A stretch of 64,000 nt of DNA from Gemmatimonadota bacterium (lineage in GTDB: Bacteria; Gemmatimonadota; Gemmatimonadetes; Gemmatimonadales; GWC2-71-9), in the NCBI GenBank assembly GCA_003221005.1, contig QHTZ01000067.1, positions 43,417 through 107,416 of the forward strand, in the 5' to 3' direction. A program made the position numbers and the translations under genes. A model generated the notes under the pieces. That model was not told the DNA's origin. It searched no databases and saw nothing but the letters and a program-made list of their open reading frames with translations. This document shows, piece by piece, positions 10,309-48,292 of the stretch (within the stretch, counting starts at the first letter, position 1; every line of letters begins with the position of its first letter).

Positions 10309-11708
10309 AGCGGCGCGTCGTACTCTACAACCCAGTGGCCGCGTTCCACACCATGCCACTCGCGCTCGTCGCGATCGGCTCCCATCTCGACCGCGAGCGG
10401 TACGAGCCGCTGATCGTGGATGGGCGACTGGAGCCCGACGCAGTGGGTCGTGTGCTGCAAGCGGCTGAGGGTGCGTTGTGCGTCGGGGTCACGGTGCTCA
10501 CCGGGGAGCCGATTCGCGACGCGGTGAGGATCTCGCGCGCGGTCAAGGCACGATATCCTGATCTTCCCGTGGTCTGGGGCGGTTGGCACCCGTCGATGTT
10601 TGGCGTCCAATGCCTCGAGGAGCCAAGCGTCGACGTCACCGTGCAGGGCCAGGGCGAGGTCACGTTCCTCGAGATCGTGGATCGCCTGGCCCGCGGCGAT
10701 GCGCTCGACGGTTGTCTCGGTTGCTCCCATCGGGCGAACCACGGCGCCGTGACGCGAAACGCCTCCCGGCCGCTCGAGGACGTCAACGCCTTTCGCCCGC
10801 ACGATTACACGCTGATCGACATCGAGCGGTATTACGGGCTCAAGGGCAAGAAGCAGCTCGACTACATCGCCTCCCAGGGGTGCCGCTTCCGCTGCGCGTT
10901 CTGCGCCGATCCGTTCGTCTACCAGCGCCGCTGGGTCGGGCTCGACCCCGCCCGCGTGGGCTTCGAGATCGAGCAGTGGTGGTTCCGCTACCGCTTCACG
11001 GACGTCAACTTCCAGGACGAGACCTTCTTCACGTCGACGCCACGCGTGGTGGCAATCGCGGAGGAGTTCATCCGTCGGGGACTGCCCATCACTTGGGCCG
11101 CCACGATGCGCGCCGATCAATGTGTGCGCATGACCGATGACGCTTTCGAGGTGTGCAAACGCTCCGGACTGCGGCGGGTCCTCGTCGGCGTCGAATCTGG
11201 GTCACCAGAGATCCTCAAGCGCATCAAGAAGGACATCACGATCGAGCAGGTTCTGGAAACCGCGGCGCGCTGCCGGGCGCTGGGCCTCAGGGTGCAATTC
11301 CCGTTCATCGTTGGCTTCCCCGACGAGGACGAGGATAGCGTCTCGGCGACGCTCGCGCTTGCCAAGCGGCTGCGGGCCATGAGTCCCGACTTTGAGACGA
11401 TGATCTTCTACTTCAAGCCGTATCCCGGCTCCGCGCTGACCGAAGACGCGGTACGCCGCGGCTACGAACTGCCCCGCACGCTCGAGGCGTGGTCCACGTT
11501 CGACTACGTCGGTTCCGCGGGCCCCTGGGTCTCGCGTGAGAAGTACCGCCGCATGGAGCGATTCAAGTTCTACGAGCGGCTGGCCTGGGACCGGGTACCA
11601 GCGTGGAAGAAACCGCTCCAGAGGCTCGCGCGCTGGCGCTGCCGCCAGGATGCGTACGGGTTTCCCGTTGAGAAACTGGTACTAGGAGCGACCTCTGGAC
11701 TTCGCTGA
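10305..11708 (+). CDS. cobalamin-dependent radical SAM enzyme
   Basis: 'VLYNP...MPLAL', 'VWGGWHPS', CxxxCxxC 'CRFRCAFC', 'GVESGS'. ATGA overlap with the methyltransferase. Confidence 0.92.
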   Translation: MKRRVVLYNPVAAFHTMPLALVAIGSHLDRERYEPLIVDGRLEPDAVGRVLQAAEGALCVGVTVLTGEPIRDAVRISRAVKARYPDLPVVWGGWHPSMFGVQCLEEPSVDVTVQGQGEVTFLEIVDRLARGDALDGCLGCSHRANHGAVTRNASRPLEDVNAFRPHDYTLIDIERYYGLKGKKQLDYIASQGCRFRCAFCADPFVYQRRWVGLDPARVGFEIEQWWFRYRFTDVNFQDETFFTSTPRVVAIAEEFIRRGLPITWAATMRADQCVRMTDDAFEVCKRSGLRRVLVGVESGSPEILKRIKKDITIEQVLETAARCRALGLRVQFPFIVGFPDEDEDSVSATLALAKRLRAMSPDFETMIFYFKPYPGSALTEDAVRRGYELPRTLEAWSTFDYVGSAGPWVSREKYRRMERFKFYERLAWDRVPAWKKPLQRLARWRCRQDAYGFPVEKLVLGATSGLR

Positions 11709-11845
11709 CCACCCCCTCCCGGGGCCCACCTGAATAGAGGGTGTTCGCGTGACTCCGCGACCTACTACCATCCGCCCACACCCACCTCCCGCCCGCAGTC
11801 TTGTCGAAATCCATTCCGCAGACGCGAGTTCAGGGTGGGCTGCCT

Positions 11846-40026: not shown

Positions 40027-41256
40027 TTACGGGTCGAACCGGTCCAGCTTCCGGTCCCGCCGCCGCGCGAGCCAGTAGAGCGGCACGCCCAGGATCAGCG
40101 TCGCCCCTGAGGCGACCCACGCCTCAGCGATCCCCCGTGTGCGCGCGAGCCATCCCCATCCCGTCTGCCCGGCCACGCCACCCACGTTCGCGAAGAATGA
40201 ATCGAGCGAGATGATCGTGGCTCGCTGCTGCGACGGGATGTGGGCGTTGAGATAGCCCTGCTTCACCGGCATCCCCACGCCGAGTGCCATGCCATAGACG
40301 AGGTACAGCCCCACCACCACGTAGAAGTCCCGCAGCAGGCCGCACAGGACTACCGTGACCACCTGCACGACCACTGACGCGATCAGCATTCCGGTGCGCG
40401 AGCGAACGACGCGCGACAGCGGCACGACAAGCGCATTGCCGGCGATCAGCGTGAGCGACGTGAGCGCGGCGATCACCCCCGACACCCACACCGCCTCCCG
40501 CCCCAGCAGGTCCAGGAAGTAGCGCTGCCAGCTGTAGAAGCCGAAGATCATAAAGCTCATCGAGACGAGCGACCCGAGCATCAGCGGCCGGACCACCGGG
40601 TGGTGCAAGCCGTAGCGCATGCCCTCCACGAACACGCGCCGCATCTCCGCCGGCACGCGCGACAACGCGAGCGCACGCGGGGTGTAGCCGAGCTCGCGCA
40701 TCCCGAACCAGGCCAGCGCGAACAACGGCACCACGATTCCCGCCCGCACGAGGTAGGGCACGGCGAGATCGATCTGACCCAGCAAGCCGCCGGCGAGGGT
40801 ACCGACCAGCATCGCCGCGCCGAACGCCATCTGACCGCGCGCGAACACCGGCTCGAGCGGCGCGGTGTACCCCGTCGCCTTGAGAGCGTCGACCAGCCAT
40901 GCGTCCACCGCGCCGGTGTAGAACGTGTAGCCGAGTCCCAGAAACACCGACACGGCGGCGAACGGCCAGAAGCCCCACCCGAGCCGCGCGATCGCCACGT
41001 AGCAGAGTGTGGTGACGAACAAGGTGGCGAGGCACAACAGCAGCGAAATACGCCGCCCGAGGGTGTCGGCGACGACGCCGGTGGGGATCTCGAACAGGAC
41101 GTTGCCCAGCGTGAACGCGGCATTCGTGAGCATCACCTGGAAGATGTCCAACCCCGCGTGGAGCTTGAACAGCGTGTCGATGCCCCAGATCAGGGACATC
41201 GCCAGGTTGAAGAGCCCGGTGATCAGCAGGTAGACGCGGATGATCTGTGCGCTCAC
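40027..41256 (-). CDS. MFS transporter
   Basis: 'FEIPTGVVADTLGRRISL'; 12-TM pattern; overlaps the stop of the substrate-binding protein gene. Confidence 0.88.
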   Translation of the reverse strand: MSAQIIRVYLLITGLFNLAMSLIWGIDTLFKLHAGLDIFQVMLTNAAFTLGNVLFEIPTGVVADTLGRRISLLLCLATLFVTTLCYVAIARLGWGFWPFAAVSVFLGLGYTFYTGAVDAWLVDALKATGYTAPLEPVFARGQMAFGAAMLVGTLAGGLLGQIDLAVPYLVRAGIVVPLFALAWFGMRELGYTPRALALSRVPAEMRRVFVEGMRYGLHHPVVRPLMLGSLVSMSFMIFGFYSWQRYFLDLLGREAVWVSGVIAALTSLTLIAGNALVVPLSRVVRSRTGMLIASVVVQVVTVVLCGLLRDFYVVVGLYLVYGMALGVGMPVKQGYLNAHIPSQQRATIISLDSFFANVGGVAGQTGWGWLARTRGIAEAWVASGATLILGVPLYWLARRRDRKLDRFDP

Positions 41257-42122
41257 GGAACGTGCGCCTCGAGCCAGTCGTGCGCGATCGCCCGGATGTC
41301 CTGGTGCTGCACGTCGGCCAGCGCATTCAAGCGCCGCATCTCGTCGTCCGAGATCTTGCCGGTCAGCTCGCCGAGCGCGGCCGCCACCTCGGGATGGCGC
41401 CGCAACACCACTTCACGCGCGACGACCGCGGCTTCGTAGGGAGGGAAGTAATGCCGATCGTCTTCCAGGGCGACGAGATCGAGCGCGGCGATCTGACCGT
41501 CCGTCGAGTTGCCGGCGATCATGTCCACCTTTCCGTCGGCGAGCGCGCGGTAGGTGAGTCCCAAGTCCATCGCGGTCGGAGGCGCGCGGAAGGCAAGCCT
41601 GTACACCTGCGACAGCCCGGCGAATCCGTCTGCGCGCTCCAGGAACTCGTAACCGAACCCCGCCTTCCACCGCGGCGCGACGCGCGCCACGTCGGAGATC
41701 CGCGTCAGGCCATATTGCCGCGCTTCCGTCCGGCGGATCAGAATCGCGAACGTGTTGTTGAAGCCGAACGGCGCGAGCCACCGCAGGCCGAAGCGTGCCG
41801 CATAGTCGCGCGCCACGACTCGCGCCACGCTGTCCCGATCGCTCACCGGGGGGTGCTTGAGCACCGCCGTGAACGCGGTGCCCGTGTACTCGGGATAGAG
41901 ATCGATCTGTCCCGCGACGATCGCCTGATGACACACGAACGTGCCACCCAGGTGCAGGCGTCGCTCCACGGGCAGGTGCGCGCGCCGCTCGATCTGCTGC
42001 GCCACGAGCTCGGCGAGCAAGTCGGACTCCGTGAAGTTCTTGGCGCCCACGACGATCCGGTCGTGCCGGGCACACGAACTTGCTGCGGAGAGCGCGAGCA
42101 CCGCGGCGAGCAACGCGAGCAT
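41253..42122 (-). CDS. betaine/QAC-type ABC substrate-binding lipoprotein (OpuC/OsmF/EgtU family)
   Basis: 'VGAKNFTES', 'YPEYTGT', 'GFNNTFA', 'EFLERADG', 'FPPYEA'. Alternative start at 42224. Confidence 0.9.
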   Translation of the reverse strand: MLALLAAVLALSAASSCARHDRIVVGAKNFTESDLLAELVAQQIERRAHLPVERRLHLGGTFVCHQAIVAGQIDLYPEYTGTAFTAVLKHPPVSDRDSVARVVARDYAARFGLRWLAPFGFNNTFAILIRRTEARQYGLTRISDVARVAPRWKAGFGYEFLERADGFAGLSQVYRLAFRAPPTAMDLGLTYRALADGKVDMIAGNSTDGQIAALDLVALEDDRHYFPPYEAAVVAREVVLRRHPEVAAALGELTGKISDDEMRRLNALADVQHQDIRAIAHDWLEAHVP

Positions 42123-42249
42123 GCCGGCCCGGCGTTTCCCGTGCCCTGAAGGGCCGGCTCGGCGTAAACGCGCGTCTTTAAAGACGCGACCTCGGCCGAG
42201 CCGGCGTTTCAACGCACGGACCACACGTGAGGCCAGGTGGGAGTCCTGC

Positions 42250-42879
42250 TCACCTTGCCCGCCACACCAGCCGCCGCTCGAGCAGCGCGAACAGGCCGTC
42301 CGCCGCCAGCGCCATCAGCGCCGCCGGGATCGCGCCCGCGAGGATCAAGGTGTCGTCCACCACCGCCACGCCGCGGAAGACGTAGACGCCGAGCCCGCCC
42401 GCGCCGATCGCGGCGCCGATCGTAGCCACGCCCACGCTCACGACCGTCGCGACGCGCACACCCGCGAGAATGACCGCCGCAGCGAGGGGCAGCTCCACCA
42501 GCCGCAGCAGCTCGGCGTCCGTCATCCCCATGCCGCGACCGGCTTCGCGGATGGCTGGGTCCACGCCCGCGATTCCCGTGTAGGTGTTGCGCACGATGGG
42601 GAGTAGCGCGTACACGATCAGCGCGGTGATCGCCGTCCAGAACCCGATGCCGAAGATCGGAATGAGGATCCCGAAGAGCGCGAGGCTCGGGATCGTCTGG
42701 AACACCCCCGCGAGCCCGAGCACGGGGGGCCGCCACGCGGGTCGGCGGGTGAGCACCACGCCGAGGGGAATCCCCACGAGTGCCGCGGCACCGGTCGAGA
42801 GTACCACCAAGACGAGGTGCTGACCGACGAGACCGAGTGCCTCATGGGCGTTGCGCGCGAAGAACGCTACCAACCTCAT
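42250..42879 (-). CDS. betaine-type ABC permease
   Basis: 'FQTIPSLAL', EAA loop 'REAGRGMGMT', 'GAGGLG'. Confidence 0.92.
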   Translation of the reverse strand: MRLVAFFARNAHEALGLVGQHLVLVVLSTGAAALVGIPLGVVLTRRPAWRPPVLGLAGVFQTIPSLALFGILIPIFGIGFWTAITALIVYALLPIVRNTYTGIAGVDPAIREAGRGMGMTDAELLRLVELPLAAAVILAGVRVATVVSVGVATIGAAIGAGGLGVYVFRGVAVVDDTLILAGAIPAALMALAADGLFALLERRLVWRAR

Positions 42880-43628
42880 GCCGCCTCCAGGAAGCGGCGG
42901 ACCTCGGGGTGCTCGTTGCGACGGAATTCGTCGGGGGTACCGAGGAACAGCAGCCGTCCCGCATGCATCAACCCGATGCGCGTCCCCAGGAGCAGCCCCT
43001 CCCGCACGTCGTGGGTCACGAACACCATGCCCTTTCCCAGCCGCCCCTCGAGGGCGCGGAATTCCTGCTGCAGTTCGAAGCGCGTAATGGGATCGAGTGC
43101 GCCGAACGGCTCGTCCAGGAGCAGCAGCGGCGGGTCGGCAGCGAGCGCGCGCGCCACCCCGACCCGCTGCCGCTGACCGCCCGAGAGCTGGTGCGGATAG
43201 CGTCCACCGAACGCCTCCGGGTCGAGCCCCACGAGCGCGAGCAGCTCGCGCACCCGGGCCGCGATCCGCTCTGGAGGCCAGCGTTCGAGCCGCGGCACGA
43301 GTCCCGCGTTCTCGGCCACCGTGAAATGCGGCAGCAGACCCACCTCCTGAATCACGTAGCCGATCCGCCGCCGCAGCGACGTGGGCTCGAGCGCCGCGGT
43401 CCGCTGCCCCGCCACCAACACCTCCCCCACCGAAGGCTCGAGCAGACGGTTGATGAGCTTAAGTGTGGTCGTCTTCCCAGAGCCGCTGCGGCCGAGGAGC
43501 ACGAGGGTCTCTCCTGCACCCACAGTGAAGGACACGTCCCGGACGATCGGCAGGACCCGTCCCTCCTCCCCCGTCCCTCTTCCCGGCAACGTATAGCCGA
43601 GTCCCCGGACCTCGAGCACGGCGCTCAT
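42876..43628 (-). CDS. betaine-type ABC ATPase
   Basis: Walker A 'GRSGSGKT'; 'LSGGQRQR'; 'LLDEPFGALD'. Confidence 0.93.
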   Translation of the reverse strand: MSAVLEVRGLGYTLPGRGTGEEGRVLPIVRDVSFTVGAGETLVLLGRSGSGKTTTLKLINRLLEPSVGEVLVAGQRTAALEPTSLRRRIGYVIQEVGLLPHFTVAENAGLVPRLERWPPERIAARVRELLALVGLDPEAFGGRYPHQLSGGQRQRVGVARALAADPPLLLLDEPFGALDPITRFELQQEFRALEGRLGKGMVFVTHDVREGLLLGTRIGLMHAGRLLFLGTPDEFRRNEHPEVRRFLEAA

Positions 43629-44578
43629 TGCGCCCCCGCCCCCACCAGCACCATTTGAAAGCGGCCGTCTTCGCTCGTCCCGCGCCAGCGCTGCCCGAGG
43701 CCGGCATCTCGCAGGATTCGCAGGAACGTGTCGGCGTCGTACTTGTACGAGTGGTTCATTTCCAGCCGCTCGCCGGCACCGAGGGTCAGGGACTCTCCGC
43801 CGAGCCGGGCGGCGACGTCGCGGGTCGCCCGGAAGTGCTTGGTGAGGGGATGCAGCCCGGGGACGCGCGCGTCCTCGCGGTCCTCGAACACGAGCTCGCC
43901 GTCGGCCTCGGTGATCCCGACGGCGTGGAGCGGCGCCCACGCGAAGCGCCGGTTCAGGGGGTTGTCATAGCCAGCGACGGTGGCCTGGGCGGCGTAGATC
44001 TCGCCGTCCACGAGGAGCAGGTCGTCCCCGCGGAGCAGTTTCCGCAGGGCCCGCGTCTCGACCAGCGGATCGAATGCGCCGAGGGTGTTGCCCAGGAGCA
44101 AAATCAGGCGCGGCGGCGTTTCGGGATTAGGCGCCAGTGCAGTGAGGTGGTCGGTCCGTGTGAAGTCGGCCTTGACGCCCTGGGCGGGGAGCCCCGCGGC
44201 GACGGCGCCCTGACACGCGAGCTCGAGCAACGCCTGGCTCGTGTCTACGGGCGTGTAGGAGACGCGGATCCCGTGGGGTCGCAGCGCTTCGATGAGAAGC
44301 AGGTCCTTGTCCCCCTGCCCCGAGCCCAGGCTCAGGACCTCGAGCGGGCCGGGGGGTATGTAGCCAGCGAGGTCGGCGGCGGACCGAGCGATGAGCGAGC
44401 GCGACCGCACGTAGTTCCGGTAGGCGCCGTCCGAGCAGAGGGCGAGCCAGGCTCGGACGGACAGCGGAAACCAATAGAAGAATTTCTCCGGGAGCCGACG
44501 CGCGCGAAACGCGGCGACGAACTCGTCGGCGAGCGCGGTCTCGGTAAGTAGCGTGTGAGTGACGATCACGGAGTTCAA
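43625..44578 (-). CDS. EgtD-family (Methyltransf_33) SAM-dependent methyltransferase, divergent
   Basis: 'LPEKFFY', 'SLGSGQGDK', 'YTPVDTS', 'LGNTLG', 'GYDNP', 'GERLEMNHSYKY' are collinear with EgtD motifs. Confidence 0.8.
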   Translation of the reverse strand: MNSVIVTHTLLTETALADEFVAAFRARRLPEKFFYWFPLSVRAWLALCSDGAYRNYVRSRSLIARSAADLAGYIPPGPLEVLSLGSGQGDKDLLLIEALRPHGIRVSYTPVDTSQALLELACQGAVAAGLPAQGVKADFTRTDHLTALAPNPETPPRLILLLGNTLGAFDPLVETRALRKLLRGDDLLLVDGEIYAAQATVAGYDNPLNRRFAWAPLHAVGITEADGELVFEDREDARVPGLHPLTKHFRATRDVAARLGGESLTLGAGERLEMNHSYKYDADTFLRILRDAGLGQRWRGTSEDGRFQMVLVGAGAQ

Positions 44579-44775: not shown

Positions 44776-45900
44776 ATGCAAGAGGGGGCCCGGACCGATT
44801 TCGGGCCCCTTTCGCGTTTCCTGGGCACGGAGGCGCGACTGGGGTTCGGGGGCTGGGCGGTGGGCGGCGCGGGCTGGGGGACGCCAGACGACACGCACGA
44901 GCGCGAGGCCGCGATCCGGCGCGCCGTCGAGCGGGGCGTCACGTTCTTCGACACCGCGCCGACGTACGGTGACGGCGAGTCCGAGCGACTGCTGGGCCGC
45001 GCGCTCGGAACCGTGCGCGAGCGGGTGGCGATCGCCACCAAGGTCGGCCCGCGCGACGATCCACGCGCCTCACTCGAAGCGTCGCTGCGCCGCCTCACCA
45101 CGGACTGCGTGGACCTGGTGCAGCTGCACGAAGCGCTCGAACGGTGGGAATGGCAACTCGAAGCGCTCTATCGGCTGCAGCTCGAGGGAAAGGCCCTCGC
45201 GATCGGGCTCTGCAACGCCACTCACCTGCAGGTCGCGCGGGCGCTGACCATCGCTCCCCTGGCGACGTATCAGGGCACCTACAACCTGTTCGATCGCGAC
45301 GTAGAAGAGCGCGAGCTGCCACTGTGCCGCGAACGTGGCCTCGCGTTCCTGGCATTCCGGCCGCTCGCCGCAGGCCTGCTCACCGGCAAGTACCGGGAGC
45401 CTCCCGCCTTCCCGGACGATGACCACCGCCGCAAGGTCTATTGGTTCAAGGGGAAGGAGTTCGAGCGCCGCCAGCGGACGATCGAGCGGCTGCGGCGCGT
45501 TGCGCGCCGGGAGGGCGTGTCGCTGCTCGAGCTCGCCCTGGGGTGGCTGCGCGCGCGGCCGGGGGTGAACATGGTCCTGGTGGGCGCGAGAAACCGGTCG
45601 CAGGTCGAGGAGGCGTTCGTCCCGGGCGTCGGGCCGCTGACAGCGGACACGGTGAACGAGATCGACCTCATAGTCCGCGAGGTCTTCCGCCCGGGCCGCG
45701 GCACGGCGCAACTCGAGCGGGCGGCCGCGACGTGGGGAGAGCGCGAGCGCTTCATCGCGGCGCGGCTCGACGGGAAGACTCGCTACGAAGCGATCGCCGC
45801 CGAGTGGACCGACCGCGGCGAACAGCCGATGATCGCGGCGCAGATCAAGGTGTTCGTGGACCAGTTGGCTGAGCAACGGTTGGTTGACGCCGACGGCTGA
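44776..45900 (+). CDS. aldo/keto reductase with a C-terminal PqqD/RRE-like extension
   Basis: 'LGFGGWAVGG', 'FFDTAPTYG', 'IATKVG', 'DLVQLH', 'PLAAGLLTGKY'. Tail 'FIAARLDGKTRYEAIAAEW...IKVFVDQLAEQRLV'. Confidence 0.88.
   Translation: MQEGARTDFGPLSRFLGTEARLGFGGWAVGGAGWGTPDDTHEREAAIRRAVERGVTFFDTAPTYGDGESERLLGRALGTVRERVAIATKVGPRDDPRASLEASLRRLTTDCVDLVQLHEALERWEWQLEALYRLQLEGKALAIGLCNATHLQVARALTIAPLATYQGTYNLFDRDVEERELPLCRERGLAFLAFRPLAAGLLTGKYREPPAFPDDDHRRKVYWFKGKEFERRQRTIERLRRVARREGVSLLELALGWLRARPGVNMVLVGARNRSQVEEAFVPGVGPLTADTVNEIDLIVREVFRPGRGTAQLERAAATWGERERFIAARLDGKTRYEAIAAEWTDRGEQPMIAAQIKVFVDQLAEQRLVDADG
44782..44812 (+). terminator. stem-loop just downstream of the precursor gene (attenuator or mRNA stabiliser)
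   Basis: gagggggcccgga-ccgat-ttcgggccccttt: 13 bp including G-U pairs, followed by a weak U tract. Confidence 0.45.
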
Positions 45901-45906
45901 CCGCTG

Positions 45907-46692
45907 ATGGCTCTCATGGTCGGGGCGTTCTACAACCCTCAGCTCGGCGCTGAGCTCGCTGCGGCGAAGGGCATCGACCACCTCGCCATGGCCGACCCGC
46001 CGGCAGCACACGATGCGCACTGGCCCACCATCCGCGAGCGCTACACGCTGCTGCTCCACGACTACCTCGGCCAGCTCTCCGAGCCGCTCGATGAACGCTC
46101 GATCGAGCGTGCCCGCTCCCTCGCTACGTTGTACCGCACACCGTGGATCGCCGAGCATTTCCAGTGCCTGCACACGGAAGACGGGCGCTACAACATCAAC
46201 TACGTGTTCCCGCCGCTCTACACCGACGAGTTTCTGGAGCGTTTCGTCGCCAACGCACGCGCGCTCCAGGCGCGGCTCGAGCAGCCGCTCGTGATGGAGA
46301 ACATCCCCGGCTTCTTCGACGTCAAGGCGAGCCAGCTCCCGGAGCCTGTCTGGCTCGCGCGTTTCTTCGACGCGACCGAGGTCGGCTTTCTGCTCGACCT
46401 GCCGCACGTTTGGCTCGAGGCCCACTACCGCGGCATGAAGCCTGAAGCGTGGCTCGCGCAATTCCCGCTCGAGCACGTAGTCGAGCTGCACGTGGCCGGC
46501 GTCGAGGAGGACGAGGACCTGCGAGGTCCCTGGATCGCGCCCACCGCCCCGTCGGAGGCCATGCTCGCGTTTCTGGCGCACGCCGTCACTCGCTGTCCCC
46601 GGGCCAAGGCTGTCACGTTCGACGCATTTTCGCCGTCGCTCACCGCCGACGTGCTGTTCCGGAGCGTTGAACGGATCCGGGGGGCGCTGTGA
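45907..46692 (+). CDS. DUF692 / multinuclear non-heme iron oxidative enzyme (MNIO)
   Basis: 'WIAEHF', 'PPLYTDEFLERFVANARALQARLEQPLVMENI', 'FLLDLPH', 'VVELHVAG'. Confidence 0.85.
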   Translation: MALMVGAFYNPQLGAELAAAKGIDHLAMADPPAAHDAHWPTIRERYTLLLHDYLGQLSEPLDERSIERARSLATLYRTPWIAEHFQCLHTEDGRYNINYVFPPLYTDEFLERFVANARALQARLEQPLVMENIPGFFDVKASQLPEPVWLARFFDATEVGFLLDLPHVWLEAHYRGMKPEAWLAQFPLEHVVELHVAGVEEDEDLRGPWIAPTAPSEAMLAFLAHAVTRCPRAKAVTFDAFSPSLTADVLFRSVERIRGAL

Positions 46693-47459
46693 CCGACCGG
46701 GCACTCCAGGACCTGGTGCTGCGCGCGCTGGCCGACGCCTCGTTCCGGGCGTCATCCGCCTGGCGGCAGCGTGCGCTCGCGGACCCCGCGAAGGTGGAGC
46801 GGTTCGCACGCTTCCTCGCGCGGCACTTCTACTACGAGCGGATCGTGCACTTCTTCAAGTACTCGGGGGCGCTGGCGCGTGTGACCGGCCGGCGACCAGA
46901 GGGGACGCTCCGCGGTGCCGAATTCGAAGCGCTGCTCCCCGTGGTCGTACTCGGCAGTCGGCAGACGGCTCGCGCGGTCGCCGATCTCGTCGTGCGCGAA
47001 GTGAAGGGCGGCGCCCCCGTGGCCTCGATCCCATATCGCGACGACTTGCTGCGCTACGAGGCGGCGATGATGGTCGCGGAGGCGGGGCCGAGGGTGTGGC
47101 GAGAGAACGGGAAGGGGGAAGAGGGAAGAGGAACGGGTGTCCCGGAAACCGCTGAAGGAACAGTGCTGCTGGATCTCGCCTACGACCTACCGGCGGTCCT
47201 GCCGCAGCTGCTCCAGCCGTGGACCGAGGTGCCGCAGGCGCCGCCGCGACCGGTGCGACTCCTCGTCGCGCGCTCGCCCCGCGGCCGGGTCGCGGTCGCT
47301 CGCACCGACAGCGCGGTGGCGCGCGTGGTCGAGCTCGCGGACGGCCGCCGCACCCTCGAAGAGCTCGCACGCGCGGCCGGGTTGCCGCGGAACGAGCTCG
47401 AGGCCACGCTCGCCGGGCTCACCGACCTCGGCGCCGTTCGCTTCGGGACGGGCAGCTGA
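46689..47459 (+). CDS. MNIO partner protein (DUF2063/HvfC-like N-terminus, RRE/wHTH C-terminus)
   Basis: 'DLLRYEAA'; C-terminal 'VVELADGRRTLEELARAAG...LAGLTDLGAV'. GTGA overlap with the MNIO gene. Confidence 0.7.
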   Translation: MTDRALQDLVLRALADASFRASSAWRQRALADPAKVERFARFLARHFYYERIVHFFKYSGALARVTGRRPEGTLRGAEFEALLPVVVLGSRQTARAVADLVVREVKGGAPVASIPYRDDLLRYEAAMMVAEAGPRVWRENGKGEEGRGTGVPETAEGTVLLDLAYDLPAVLPQLLQPWTEVPQAPPRPVRLLVARSPRGRVAVARTDSAVARVVELADGRRTLEELARAAGLPRNELEATLAGLTDLGAVRFGTGS

Positions 47460-47470
47460 GCGCCGTGGCG

Positions 47471-48292
47471 TTACGCGGGCTTTCGCGCGCGCACGAACGC
47501 GCCCATGATCCTGCCGCTCACCTCGCGCGCCAGGACATCGACGTCGAGCCCGGCCCCAGCCAGCACGGCCCGCGCATCCTCGAAGCTGTAGATCCGGGTC
47601 GGCTCGATCCCGACGTTTTCGAAGCCGTTCGCGCTAAGCAGCGCCTTGAACTCTTCCTCCTCGAGGGCGCCGGCCACGCATCCCACCCACAGCTCCATGC
47701 TGCGGCGCACCTCACGCGGGATCTCCCCCCGCACCACGACGTCGGAGACGGCGAACCGGCCACCGGGCTTGAGCACGCGAAACGCCTCGGCCAGCACCCG
47801 CCGCTTATCGGCGGCGAGGTTGATGACGCAGTTCGAGATGATGACGTCCACCGACGCGTCCGGAAGAGGAATGCGCTCGATGTCCCCTTTCAAGAACTCG
47901 ACGTTCTCGACCCCGGCCTTCCGCTGGTTTTCGCGCGCCAGGGCGAGCATCTCGTCGGTCATGTCGAGCCCGTACGCCTTGCCGGTCGGCCCCACGCGCC
48001 GGGCGGAGAGCAGCACGTCGATGCCCCCGCCGGAGCCGAGGTCGAGCACCACTTCTCCCGGGAGCAGCTCGGCGAGCGCAGTTGGGTTGCCGCAGCCGAG
48101 CGAAGCGAGCACGGCTTGCTCGGGGAGGGACGCGGTCTCAGCAGCCTCGTACAGGTTGGATGTGACGGGATCGCAGCCGCCGCTCGCTGCGGCGCCGCCG
48201 CAACACGAGCTTCCCTGCCCGTGCAGCACGCGCAGCGCCGCCTCTCCGTACTTCGCCCGTACGGTGTCCTTGATCACGGTGTCGTCGGTCAT
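47471..48292 (-). CDS. arsM: arsenite methyltransferase
   Basis: 'SCCG', 'SLGCGNP', 'LDLGSGGGID', 'ISNCVINL', 'WVGCVAGAL'. Confidence 0.9.
   Translation of the reverse strand: MTDDTVIKDTVRAKYGEAALRVLHGQGSSCCGGAAASGGCDPVTSNLYEAAETASLPEQAVLASLGCGNPTALAELLPGEVVLDLGSGGGIDVLLSARRVGPTGKAYGLDMTDEMLALARENQRKAGVENVEFLKGDIERIPLPDASVDVIISNCVINLAADKRRVLAEAFRVLKPGGRFAVSDVVVRGEIPREVRRSMELWVGCVAGALEEEEFKALLSANGFENVGIEPTRIYSFEDARAVLAGAGLDVDVLAREVSGRIMGAFVRARKPA

Follow-up and report, generated by a model that had tools for sequence, protein, structure and literature searches.

Background

Enzymatic reduction of a peptide carbonyl has a precedent among ribosomally synthesized peptides with post-translational modifications (RiPPs), namely ElxO of the lanthipeptides, which reduces a ketone in an NADPH-dependent manner and so turns an N-terminal pyruvyl group into a lactyl group. 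ElxO is a short-chain dehydrogenase and not an aldo-keto reductase (AKR), is not known to carry a fused RiPP recognition element (RRE), and receives its carbonyl from hydrolysis of a dehydro-amino acid and not from a multinuclear nonheme iron-dependent oxidative enzyme (MNIO). Recognition domains fused to tailoring enzymes are a known RiPP theme. In the ApyHI (aminopyruvatide) pathway of B. thailandensis, as given in the main text of its description (PMC11117315), an MNIO makes a keto group on a peptide, which is by analogy the kind of group that an AKR could reduce. All known RREs, according to the same main text, combine three helices with a three-stranded sheet, to which the peptide binds as a fourth strand (PMC11117315). 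Here we describe an AKR with a C-terminal tail, encoded in a 64,000-nucleotide stretch of DNA (hereafter the window, meaning the whole stretch that was analyzed) from a Gemmatimonadota bacterium (GenBank assembly GCA_003221005.1, contig QHTZ01000067.1, positions 43,417 to 107,416). This AKR is a constant member of an MNIO-type RiPP gene cluster, not described before, in Gemmatimonadota, and its last 55-75 residues are predicted, from models and profiles, to form a shortened PqqD/RRE-type winged helix that retains the strand-3 position and helices 1-3.

A literature search of about 8.4 million full texts, with subscription papers and bioRxiv supplements outside its scope, returned no report of an AKR with a recognition domain or of an AKR in an MNIO pathway; it likewise returned nothing on MNIOs in Gemmatimonad hosts, and what it gave for EgtD together with RiPPs was unrelated. 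The word "reductase" is absent from the main text of PMC11117315, and the MNIO landscape paper (PMC12452194) contains neither "aldo" nor "Gemmatimon" in its main text and neither PF00248 nor PF10017 in the part of its supplements that was covered.

Results

An intact reductase barrel followed by a conserved extension

The Pfam family Aldo_ket_red (PF00248) matches residues 21-299 of the AKR over profile positions 1-289 of 291 (E 1.2e-59; 202 bits, cut-off 24), which amounts to a complete barrel, and the strand/helix alternation of the barrel is seen in the full-length AlphaFold2 model built from an alignment of 114 homologues (mean predicted local distance difference test, pLDDT, 90.1; predicted template modeling score, pTM, 0.89). 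The original prediction, made from the letters of the sequence and a list of open reading frames (ORFs), had claimed extra C-terminal residues after a complete AKR barrel, and this holds: the string it had quoted, ERERFIAARLDGKTRYEAIAAEW...QIKVFVDQLAEQRLV, corresponds to residues 322-371. The columns of D59 and Y64 (in FFDTAPTYG), K89 (ATKVG) and H118 (QLHE) are invariant in the same alignment; going by known AKR motifs, we take these four residues to be the catalytic tetrad, and the protein is predicted to be a catalytically intact NAD(P)H-dependent reductase. Named AKRs in NCBIfam gave sub-threshold matches only (best YdjG, 124.6 bits against a cut-off of 550), so the enzyme is not an orthologue of any of them. 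By Foldseek, its nearest solved relatives, which share 31-34% identity with it, are AKR11A (1pyf), AKR11B (1pz1) and AKR11B4 (E 4.5e-24 to 1.4e-22). Because 1pyf and 1pz1 (311-333 aa) align over only ~300 columns, with a query-normalized TM-score of 0.69-0.70, the C-terminal tail is left uncovered, as it is by all of these nearest Foldseek matches. In AKRs, the substrate pocket is capped by the C-terminal loop, and a domain attached there would sit at the mouth of the active site.

The extension is conserved and not noise. The tailed AKR is conserved over its full length in >110 homologue clusters at 64-78% identity, and W320, G321, R323, L331, G333, A342, W344, A355, Q356 and D362 of the tail are invariant in 114 sequences. 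Conservation within the tail peaks in WG-x-RER, which falls at the strand-3/helix-1 position, and in PM-x-AAQ-x-KV of helix 3. In RREs, the groove for the peptide is built from strand 3 and helix 3, and the two segments lie there; they could equally be a face that packs against the barrel. In the full-length model, the tail block follows the last barrel helix (290-303) with pLDDT 93-97 (about 95) and comprises a short helix (311-317), three longer helices (322-329, 337-346 and 354-366), two-residue strands at 308-309 and 370-371, and a strand of one or two residues at 332. When the tail is folded alone, from 17 orthologues, the same elements appear (pLDDT 82, pTM 0.70).

Likeness of the tail to PqqD and RRE domains

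The original prediction held that the tail follows the helical pattern of PqqD/RRE domains, and by profile comparison this likeness lies measurably above chance. In the tail of the window's AKR, Pfam PqqD (PF05402) scores 16.4-16.7 bits (E 0.009-0.012) over profile positions 21-67 of 67. Each of 17 orthologous tails has PqqD as its top Pfam family, under the curated cut-off every time (best E 7e-5), and two of them also touch a PaaA-like N-terminal domain. NCBIfam models of PqqD-type chaperones respond as well, below threshold, with ScmD in 10 of the 17 tails and PqqD in 8. Against 30 bona fide PqqD domains (63-76 bits) collected from Gemmatimonadota genomes, hhalign aligned the tail over 47-48 columns with Prob 73.7-76.9% and P 2-3e-5, compared with 0.1% for the reversed PqqD alignment and at most 1.9% (best P 0.026) for 20 column-shuffled controls. 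The cluster's MNIO partner protein reaches only 3.3% against PqqD in the same comparison, and the idea that the tail is a recent copy of that protein's domain was ruled out (hhalign tail versus partner, Prob 3.8%).

The predicted fold is a winged helix, as the original prediction had required of the tail, and its matches include PqqD and RRE structures. With VIA-align, a Z below 8 may reflect a merely common helical arrangement, and all values for the tail are below 8: PqqD 3g2b gave Z 6.8 (root-mean-square deviation 2.4, 57 aligned), the lasso-peptide protein B1 with bound leader (6jx3) Z 6.5 (68 aligned), TbiB1 (5v1u) Z 6.0, and PqqD 5sxy, the PbtF RRE (8t19) and TigE (8vpo) Z 5.2 each. Foldseek, one of the checks proposed along with the original prediction, found no match to the tail model in the PDB at E <= 0.001; its weak list above that value included LynD (4v1t), TbiB1 (5v1u) and TruD (4bs9). 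A tail profile searched against PDB sequences gave a single spurious 13-bit match, and a look-up of the tail in the ESM Atlas gave no usable match.

Several of these results weigh against reading the tail as an RRE. The Pfam score stays under the curated PqqD threshold of 23.4 bits, the TIGR03859 score is 14 bits against a cut-off of 46, and the PqqD match is confined to the later part of the profile. No three-stranded antiparallel sheet is present in the tail model, which has very short strands only. The best VIA-align match is not a PqqD protein but the winged helix of a methyltransferase (8hkr, Z 7.5), many DNA-binding winged helices score Z 5-6, and the generic range of all these Z values and the empty Foldseek search belong on the same side. 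So does the position of a gap of ~20 residues, described below, where PqqD has strands 1 and 2. Of the RRE identity that had been proposed, the part concerning sequence profile and predicted fold stands, and the part that would call for a full domain does not, with the first two sheet strands absent and the scores sub-threshold. On balance, we consider it quite probable that the tail is homologous to the PqqD/RRE class, but the domain is incomplete.

The gap emerged from a comparison with relatives in sequence databases. The tail profile matched only 33 of the 1.84 billion representative proteins searched, and Pfam was run on 11 of these, seven being AKRs, three (P0139, P0142 and P0147) bearing unrelated domains and one (P0137) matching no family. 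P0137 (111 aa) consists of a piece of tail flanked by low-complexity junk, beginning MLFFFFFFNDTATTEIY..., and looks like an assembly or translation artefact and not a separate architecture. A rarer long form of the tailed AKR (P0138, P0143, P0149, P0151 and the copy in genome G104) has ~20 extra residues directly before the position equivalent to WG-x-RER, and their alternating pattern looks strand-like by eye. Because the window's AKR lacks these ~20 residues, its tail is the short form, with the place of strands 1 and 2 deleted. Once the long-form residues are included, hhalign aligns the tail to PqqD over template columns 16-74, which take in strand 3, at Prob 70%. When the C-termini of four long-form relatives were compared with Pfam, PqqD appeared in two (E 0.0019 and 0.15), the other two gave no match, and the strand region was not recovered. 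A search with the long-form tail returned seven proteins, all AKRs, the one with an organism name being from Gemmatimonadaceae.

Strict linkage of the tailed reductase to one gene cluster

Only this AKR clade was found to have the tail, and its members always sit in one gene cluster. We surveyed contigs from one genome per species and, separately, the 80 best-ranking loci among 293 metagenome relatives that two tail-specific patterns brought up. Among the genome contigs, 16 loci carry the tailed AKR at 59-78% identity (residues 1 to 364-374), all labelled Gemmatimonadota, and the other 64 loci returned hold tail-less AKRs at 32-41% identity. The precursor gene lies immediately before the tailed AKR and an EgtD-like gene lies upstream in 16/16 of these loci; the MNIO follows the AKR in 15 (the contig of L014 ends first), the partner is present in 14 (the contigs of L009 and L014 end first), and the OpuAC gene is present in 14, with contig ends truncating the remaining two. 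Metagenome loci with enough room agree, the barrel preceding the tail in 63/63 and the MNIO following in 64/64, and a scan found the precursor in 59 of 60, the one miss (L138) having a precursor on inspection. Tailed AKRs unlinked to a precursor peptide, which would have spoken against the original prediction, were accordingly found in neither survey, and no case of the tail outside the cluster occurred in the 16 genome and 80 metagenome loci.

Within the phylum, the tail occurs in 13 of 301 sampled genomes, including 8/8 of one genus and 0/2 of the other genomes of the window's genus, and this patchy spread fits an accessory biosynthetic cluster. The tally includes genome G182, flagged as unpublished, and the tally of PqqD domains includes the flagged genomes G057 and G097; none of the three is in the alignments. 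In G104, a divergent cluster (locus L194) retains the full set of eight genes at 37-63% identity; its transporter genes are ordered and oriented differently, and its AKR has the long tail.

A nearly invariant precursor with Cys-His repeats

The putative precursor peptide, MQIVETQELVPTCHRPEVVETSELQPTCHS, contains two copies of (I/V)VE-x-x-EL-x-P-[ST]-C-H and is preceded by a GGAGGA ribosome-binding site 8 nt upstream. Across 17 genomes its column identity averages 92%, above that of the enzymes, and M1, E5, E8, L9, V10, P11, C13, H14, R15, P16, E17, E20, T21, E23, L24, P26, C28 and H29 are invariant. Sites that do vary number 10, 5 and 21 at the first, second and third codon positions, and because the variation is mostly at third positions, we regard the ORF as a real coding sequence under strong constraint. 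The C-terminal residue, after the last Cys-His, is S, A or T in the 17 genomes and L in G104, whose precursor (L194:6748-6942) has four EL-A-P-[ST]-C-H repeats, MANTTIQMIERSHLAPTCHRPSVVEESELAPTCHRPLIVEAGELAPSCHVQVVETNELAPTCHL. Since the number of repeats varies (two versus four), the sequences suggest that each repeat may be a separate core or production unit. Predicted complexes of the AKR with the precursor scored 0.01 twice against a mark of 0.32 and are used neither for nor against the proposal below.

Composition of the cluster and its surroundings

The cluster is compact at 6.2 kb (Table 1), with 14 nt between precursor and AKR, 6 nt between AKR and MNIO, and a partner start that overlaps the MNIO stop; the methyltransferase and importer genes are transcribed divergently from this precursor operon. 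The likely start of the ATP-binding cassette (ABC) ATPase is the ATG at 43628 (M105 of a 354-aa ORF, the listed frame extending to 43940), which overlaps the methyltransferase stop and from which homologues match onward.

Table 1 Features of the tailed AKR and its gene cluster, in window coordinates
Feature	Position	Strand	Basis
Tailed AKR	44776-45900	+	ORF translation, 374 aa
AKR (alpha/beta)8 barrel, residues 1-299	44776..45672	+	Pfam, invariant tetrad D59/Y64/K89/H118, Foldseek
C-terminal extension, residues 300-374	45673..45897	+	Profile matches and AlphaFold models
PqqD-like three-helix core, residues 322-371	45739-45888	+	Profile matches and AlphaFold models
Precursor peptide, 30 aa	44669..44761	+	Direct translation, conservation
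MNIO (DUF692) iron oxidase	45907..46692	+	PF05114 E 1e-26, 94.3 bits against cut-off 25
MNIO partner protein	46689..47459	+	NCBIfam ApyI 25.5 bits; weak NGO1945_C and HTH_20 matches
EgtD-like S-adenosylmethionine (SAM) methyltransferase (Methyltransf_33)	43625..44578	-	PF10017 E 4.2e-24
ABC ATPase	42876..43628	-	Pfam ABC_tran E 2.1e-35
ABC permease	42250..42879	-	Pfam BPD_transp_1 E 3.8e-20; syntenic in genome loci and G104
OpuAC substrate-binding protein, glycine-betaine-type ABC importer	41253..42224	-	Pfam OpuAC E 5.7e-60

With a PF05114 MNIO, a conserved partner and a short precursor with invariant C13 and C28, the locus has the make-up of an MNIO RiPP cluster. Among NCBIfam models, the MNIO scores highest with ApyH (105 bits where the cut-off is 400) and BufB (86 bits where it is 310), and the partner scores highest with ApyI (cut-off 200); because these scores fall far below the cut-offs, the comparison points to a new, uncharacterized MNIO subfamily. 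The methyltransferase reaches 61.6 bits with NCBIfam EgtD, whose cut-off is 290.9. It is the sole Methyltransf_33 gene of the 94%-complete genome, as the cluster's MNIO is its sole MNIO. The EgtD-like methyltransferase and the OpuAC importer are kept with the RiPP genes despite rearranged gene order (L010; L194:2441-6623). A methyltransferase together with a betaine-type importer hints at a quaternary-amine substrate or product in the pathway.

The next gene after the partner lies on the other strand and encodes an ArsM/UbiE-like SAM methyltransferase (Methyltransf_31, E 3.9e-37; 47471-48292, minus strand). It was ruled out as a cluster member, since none of the 16 genome loci matched it. Insertions of genes between AKR and MNIO or between MNIO and partner occur in L003, L004, L011, L012, L013 and L015 and are lineage-specific. 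Some relatives have an extra protein of ~418 aa, LssY-like by eye, between MNIO and partner (L003:9850-11106, L013:4402-5655); others have a ~367-aa protein, by eye an alpha/beta-hydrolase with a signal-like N-terminus, between AKR and MNIO (L012:7302-8405, L015:8951-10048), and L015 also encodes a repeat-rich protein of ~343 aa (10802-11830). Elsewhere in the window's genome, two ORFs with full-length PqqD domains (67.5 and 66.2 bits), both 161-aa frames on small contigs, lie at G000:C113:429-629 and G000:C110:1852-2052 (both minus strand; loci L081 and L082), and they may be part of a different RiPP cluster or of a contig that was duplicated.

Discussion

A composite reading of the locus

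A peptide-directed reductase function for the tailed AKR is plausible from its sequence and setting. In the repeated P-[ST]-C-H units of the 30-aa precursor, the cysteines would be oxidized by the MNIO and its partner; the tail would tether the AKR to this peptide, probably via the acidic (I/V)VE-x-x-EL stretch before each core, and the AKR would then reduce an aldehyde or ketone left at the oxidized residue, adding 2 Da. We propose cysteine as the site of oxidation because every Cys-acting MNIO in Table 1 of the landscape paper oxidizes cysteine (PMC12452194). Alongside the observed domain architecture, intact tetrad, PqqD-like tail and strict genetic linkage, we infer peptide binding by the tail, a peptide-borne substrate and the identity of the carbonyl, and we judge the chances that the composite (a peptide-tethered AKR reducing an MNIO-generated carbonyl on the precursor) is right to be about evenly balanced. 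Two considerations count against it. We know of no MNIO product on cysteine that obviously needs an AKR, and the cluster already has a partner protein of the type to which precursors bind in other MNIO systems, so that a second binder would not be strictly needed. The original prediction had also leaned on ApyH, whose product is an aminopyruvate, and this analogy is not directly transferable: the MNIO scores 105 bits where 400 are needed, and the precursor ends in Ser, Ala, Thr or Leu, not Asp. A role for the AKR as electron donor to the MNIO was rejected, since AKRs pass hydride to carbonyls and do not supply electrons to iron centers.

Alternative explanations

The rival that deserves most attention, as a minority possibility with real weight, takes the tail for a docking or structural winged helix, which would attach the AKR to the MNIO-partner complex or serve its stability or oligomerization, with the precursor bound by the partner only. 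The short form has indeed lost the residues at the place of PqqD strands 1 and 2, the cluster does have a partner of its own, the Z scores fall within the generic winged-helix range, and the rise in pLDDT from 82 for the tail alone to ~95 within the full-length model (pTM 0.89) suggests firm packing on the barrel. Against this, the specific sequence signal points to PqqD-type peptide chaperones, in three independent hidden Markov models and in hhalign, and not to other winged-helix families; the tail is moreover far more PqqD-like than the partner (74-77% versus 3.3%). Alternatively, the AKR might act on a small molecule, be it a released fragment or a betaine-type aldehyde processed jointly with the EgtD-like methyltransferase and the OpuAC importer, with the tail as a lid or ligand-binding module. 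Its closest solved relatives are the AKR11 reductases of small aldehydes and ketones, and the methyltransferase and betaine-type importer stay with the cluster in L010 and G104 despite reordering, yet the AKR gene sits between precursor and MNIO with spacers of 14 and 6 nt, and the PqqD family is known as a binder of peptides, not of small ligands (PMC11117315), so that we find this reading unlikely.

Could the resemblance be due to chance, the extension being just the long C-terminus of one AKR subfamily and bearing no relation to the RiPP genes? Every family match is sub-threshold and Foldseek is not significant, but the hhalign controls score far lower, the tail is confined to the cluster throughout the 16 genome and 80 metagenome loci, and generic AKRs at 32-41% identity lack it, as do most genomes of the phylum (13/301 have it); we therefore hold chance to be highly improbable. 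That the tail binds DNA and lets the enzyme regulate its operon is a suggestion we give almost no credence: winged helices of Lrp/AsnC, Fur and sigma region 4 do match at Z 4.5-6, but no DNA-binding helix-turn-helix family was found among the tails at E <= 1 except one LuxT_C, and the domain forms the C-terminal part of a metabolic enzyme.

A more speculative extension of the peptide-tethered reading would make the eight-gene cluster a ribosomally templated factory for an ergothioneine- or ovothiol-like betaine derived from sulfur and histidine, with the repeat as the unit of production (two here, four in G104). The MNIO would oxidatively join or transfer the cysteine sulfur to the neighboring histidine, and the peptide-anchored AKR would reduce a carbonyl on the former cysteine; the EgtD-like methyltransferase would quaternize the released unit, which the OpuAC-type transporter would handle. 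We think this scheme as a whole a long shot.

Significance

If the peptide-tethered reading is right, NAD(P)H-dependent carbonyl reduction would be added to the MNIO toolbox, and this MNIO would leave behind, on a Cys-His unit, a carbonyl open to reduction, an outcome new for MNIOs. The tail would also be a naturally minimized RRE, with strands 1 and 2 gone, and would help to show what part of the fold peptide recognition requires. Under the betaine scheme, the AKR-RRE fusion would be the first peptide-directed aldo-keto reductase. The cluster is compact, its multi-repeat precursor is nearly invariant, and it includes a methyltransferase and importer pair of the betaine type; it makes a testable target for heterologous expression.

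Comparison with known systems

The AKR11 enzymes (B. subtilis AKR11A/IolS, 1pyf, and AKR11B/YhdN, 1pz1; G. oxydans AKR11B4, 3n2t) share the barrel and the catalytic tetrad motif with the tailed AKR but are stand-alone proteins of 311-333 aa that act on small-molecule substrates, carry no C-terminal winged helix and belong to no RiPP cluster. The ApyHI aminopyruvatide pathway (PMC11117315) supplies the best NCBIfam matches of MNIO and partner, ApyH and ApyI, although at equivalog scores (105/400 and 25.5/200) that place the window genes outside both families; ApyA ends in Asp, whereas the window precursor ends in S, A or T (L in G104) and has invariant Cys-His pairs. Compared with the PqqD/RRE domains of 3g2b, 6jx3 and 5v1u, the tail is a short form without the N-terminal beta-hairpin, its bit score is below the gathering threshold, and it is a putative peptide binder. 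What the tail shares with these domains is a three-helix winged-helix core (helices predicted at pLDDT ~95), an LDG-x-x-T turn between helices 1 and 2, a hydrophobic helix 3 followed by GLV, and a setting in a RiPP cluster, fused to a tailoring enzyme. Set beside these systems, the protein is best described as an AKR to which a PqqD/RRE-type domain is fused in shortened form, encoded in a new RiPP cluster of the MNIO type.

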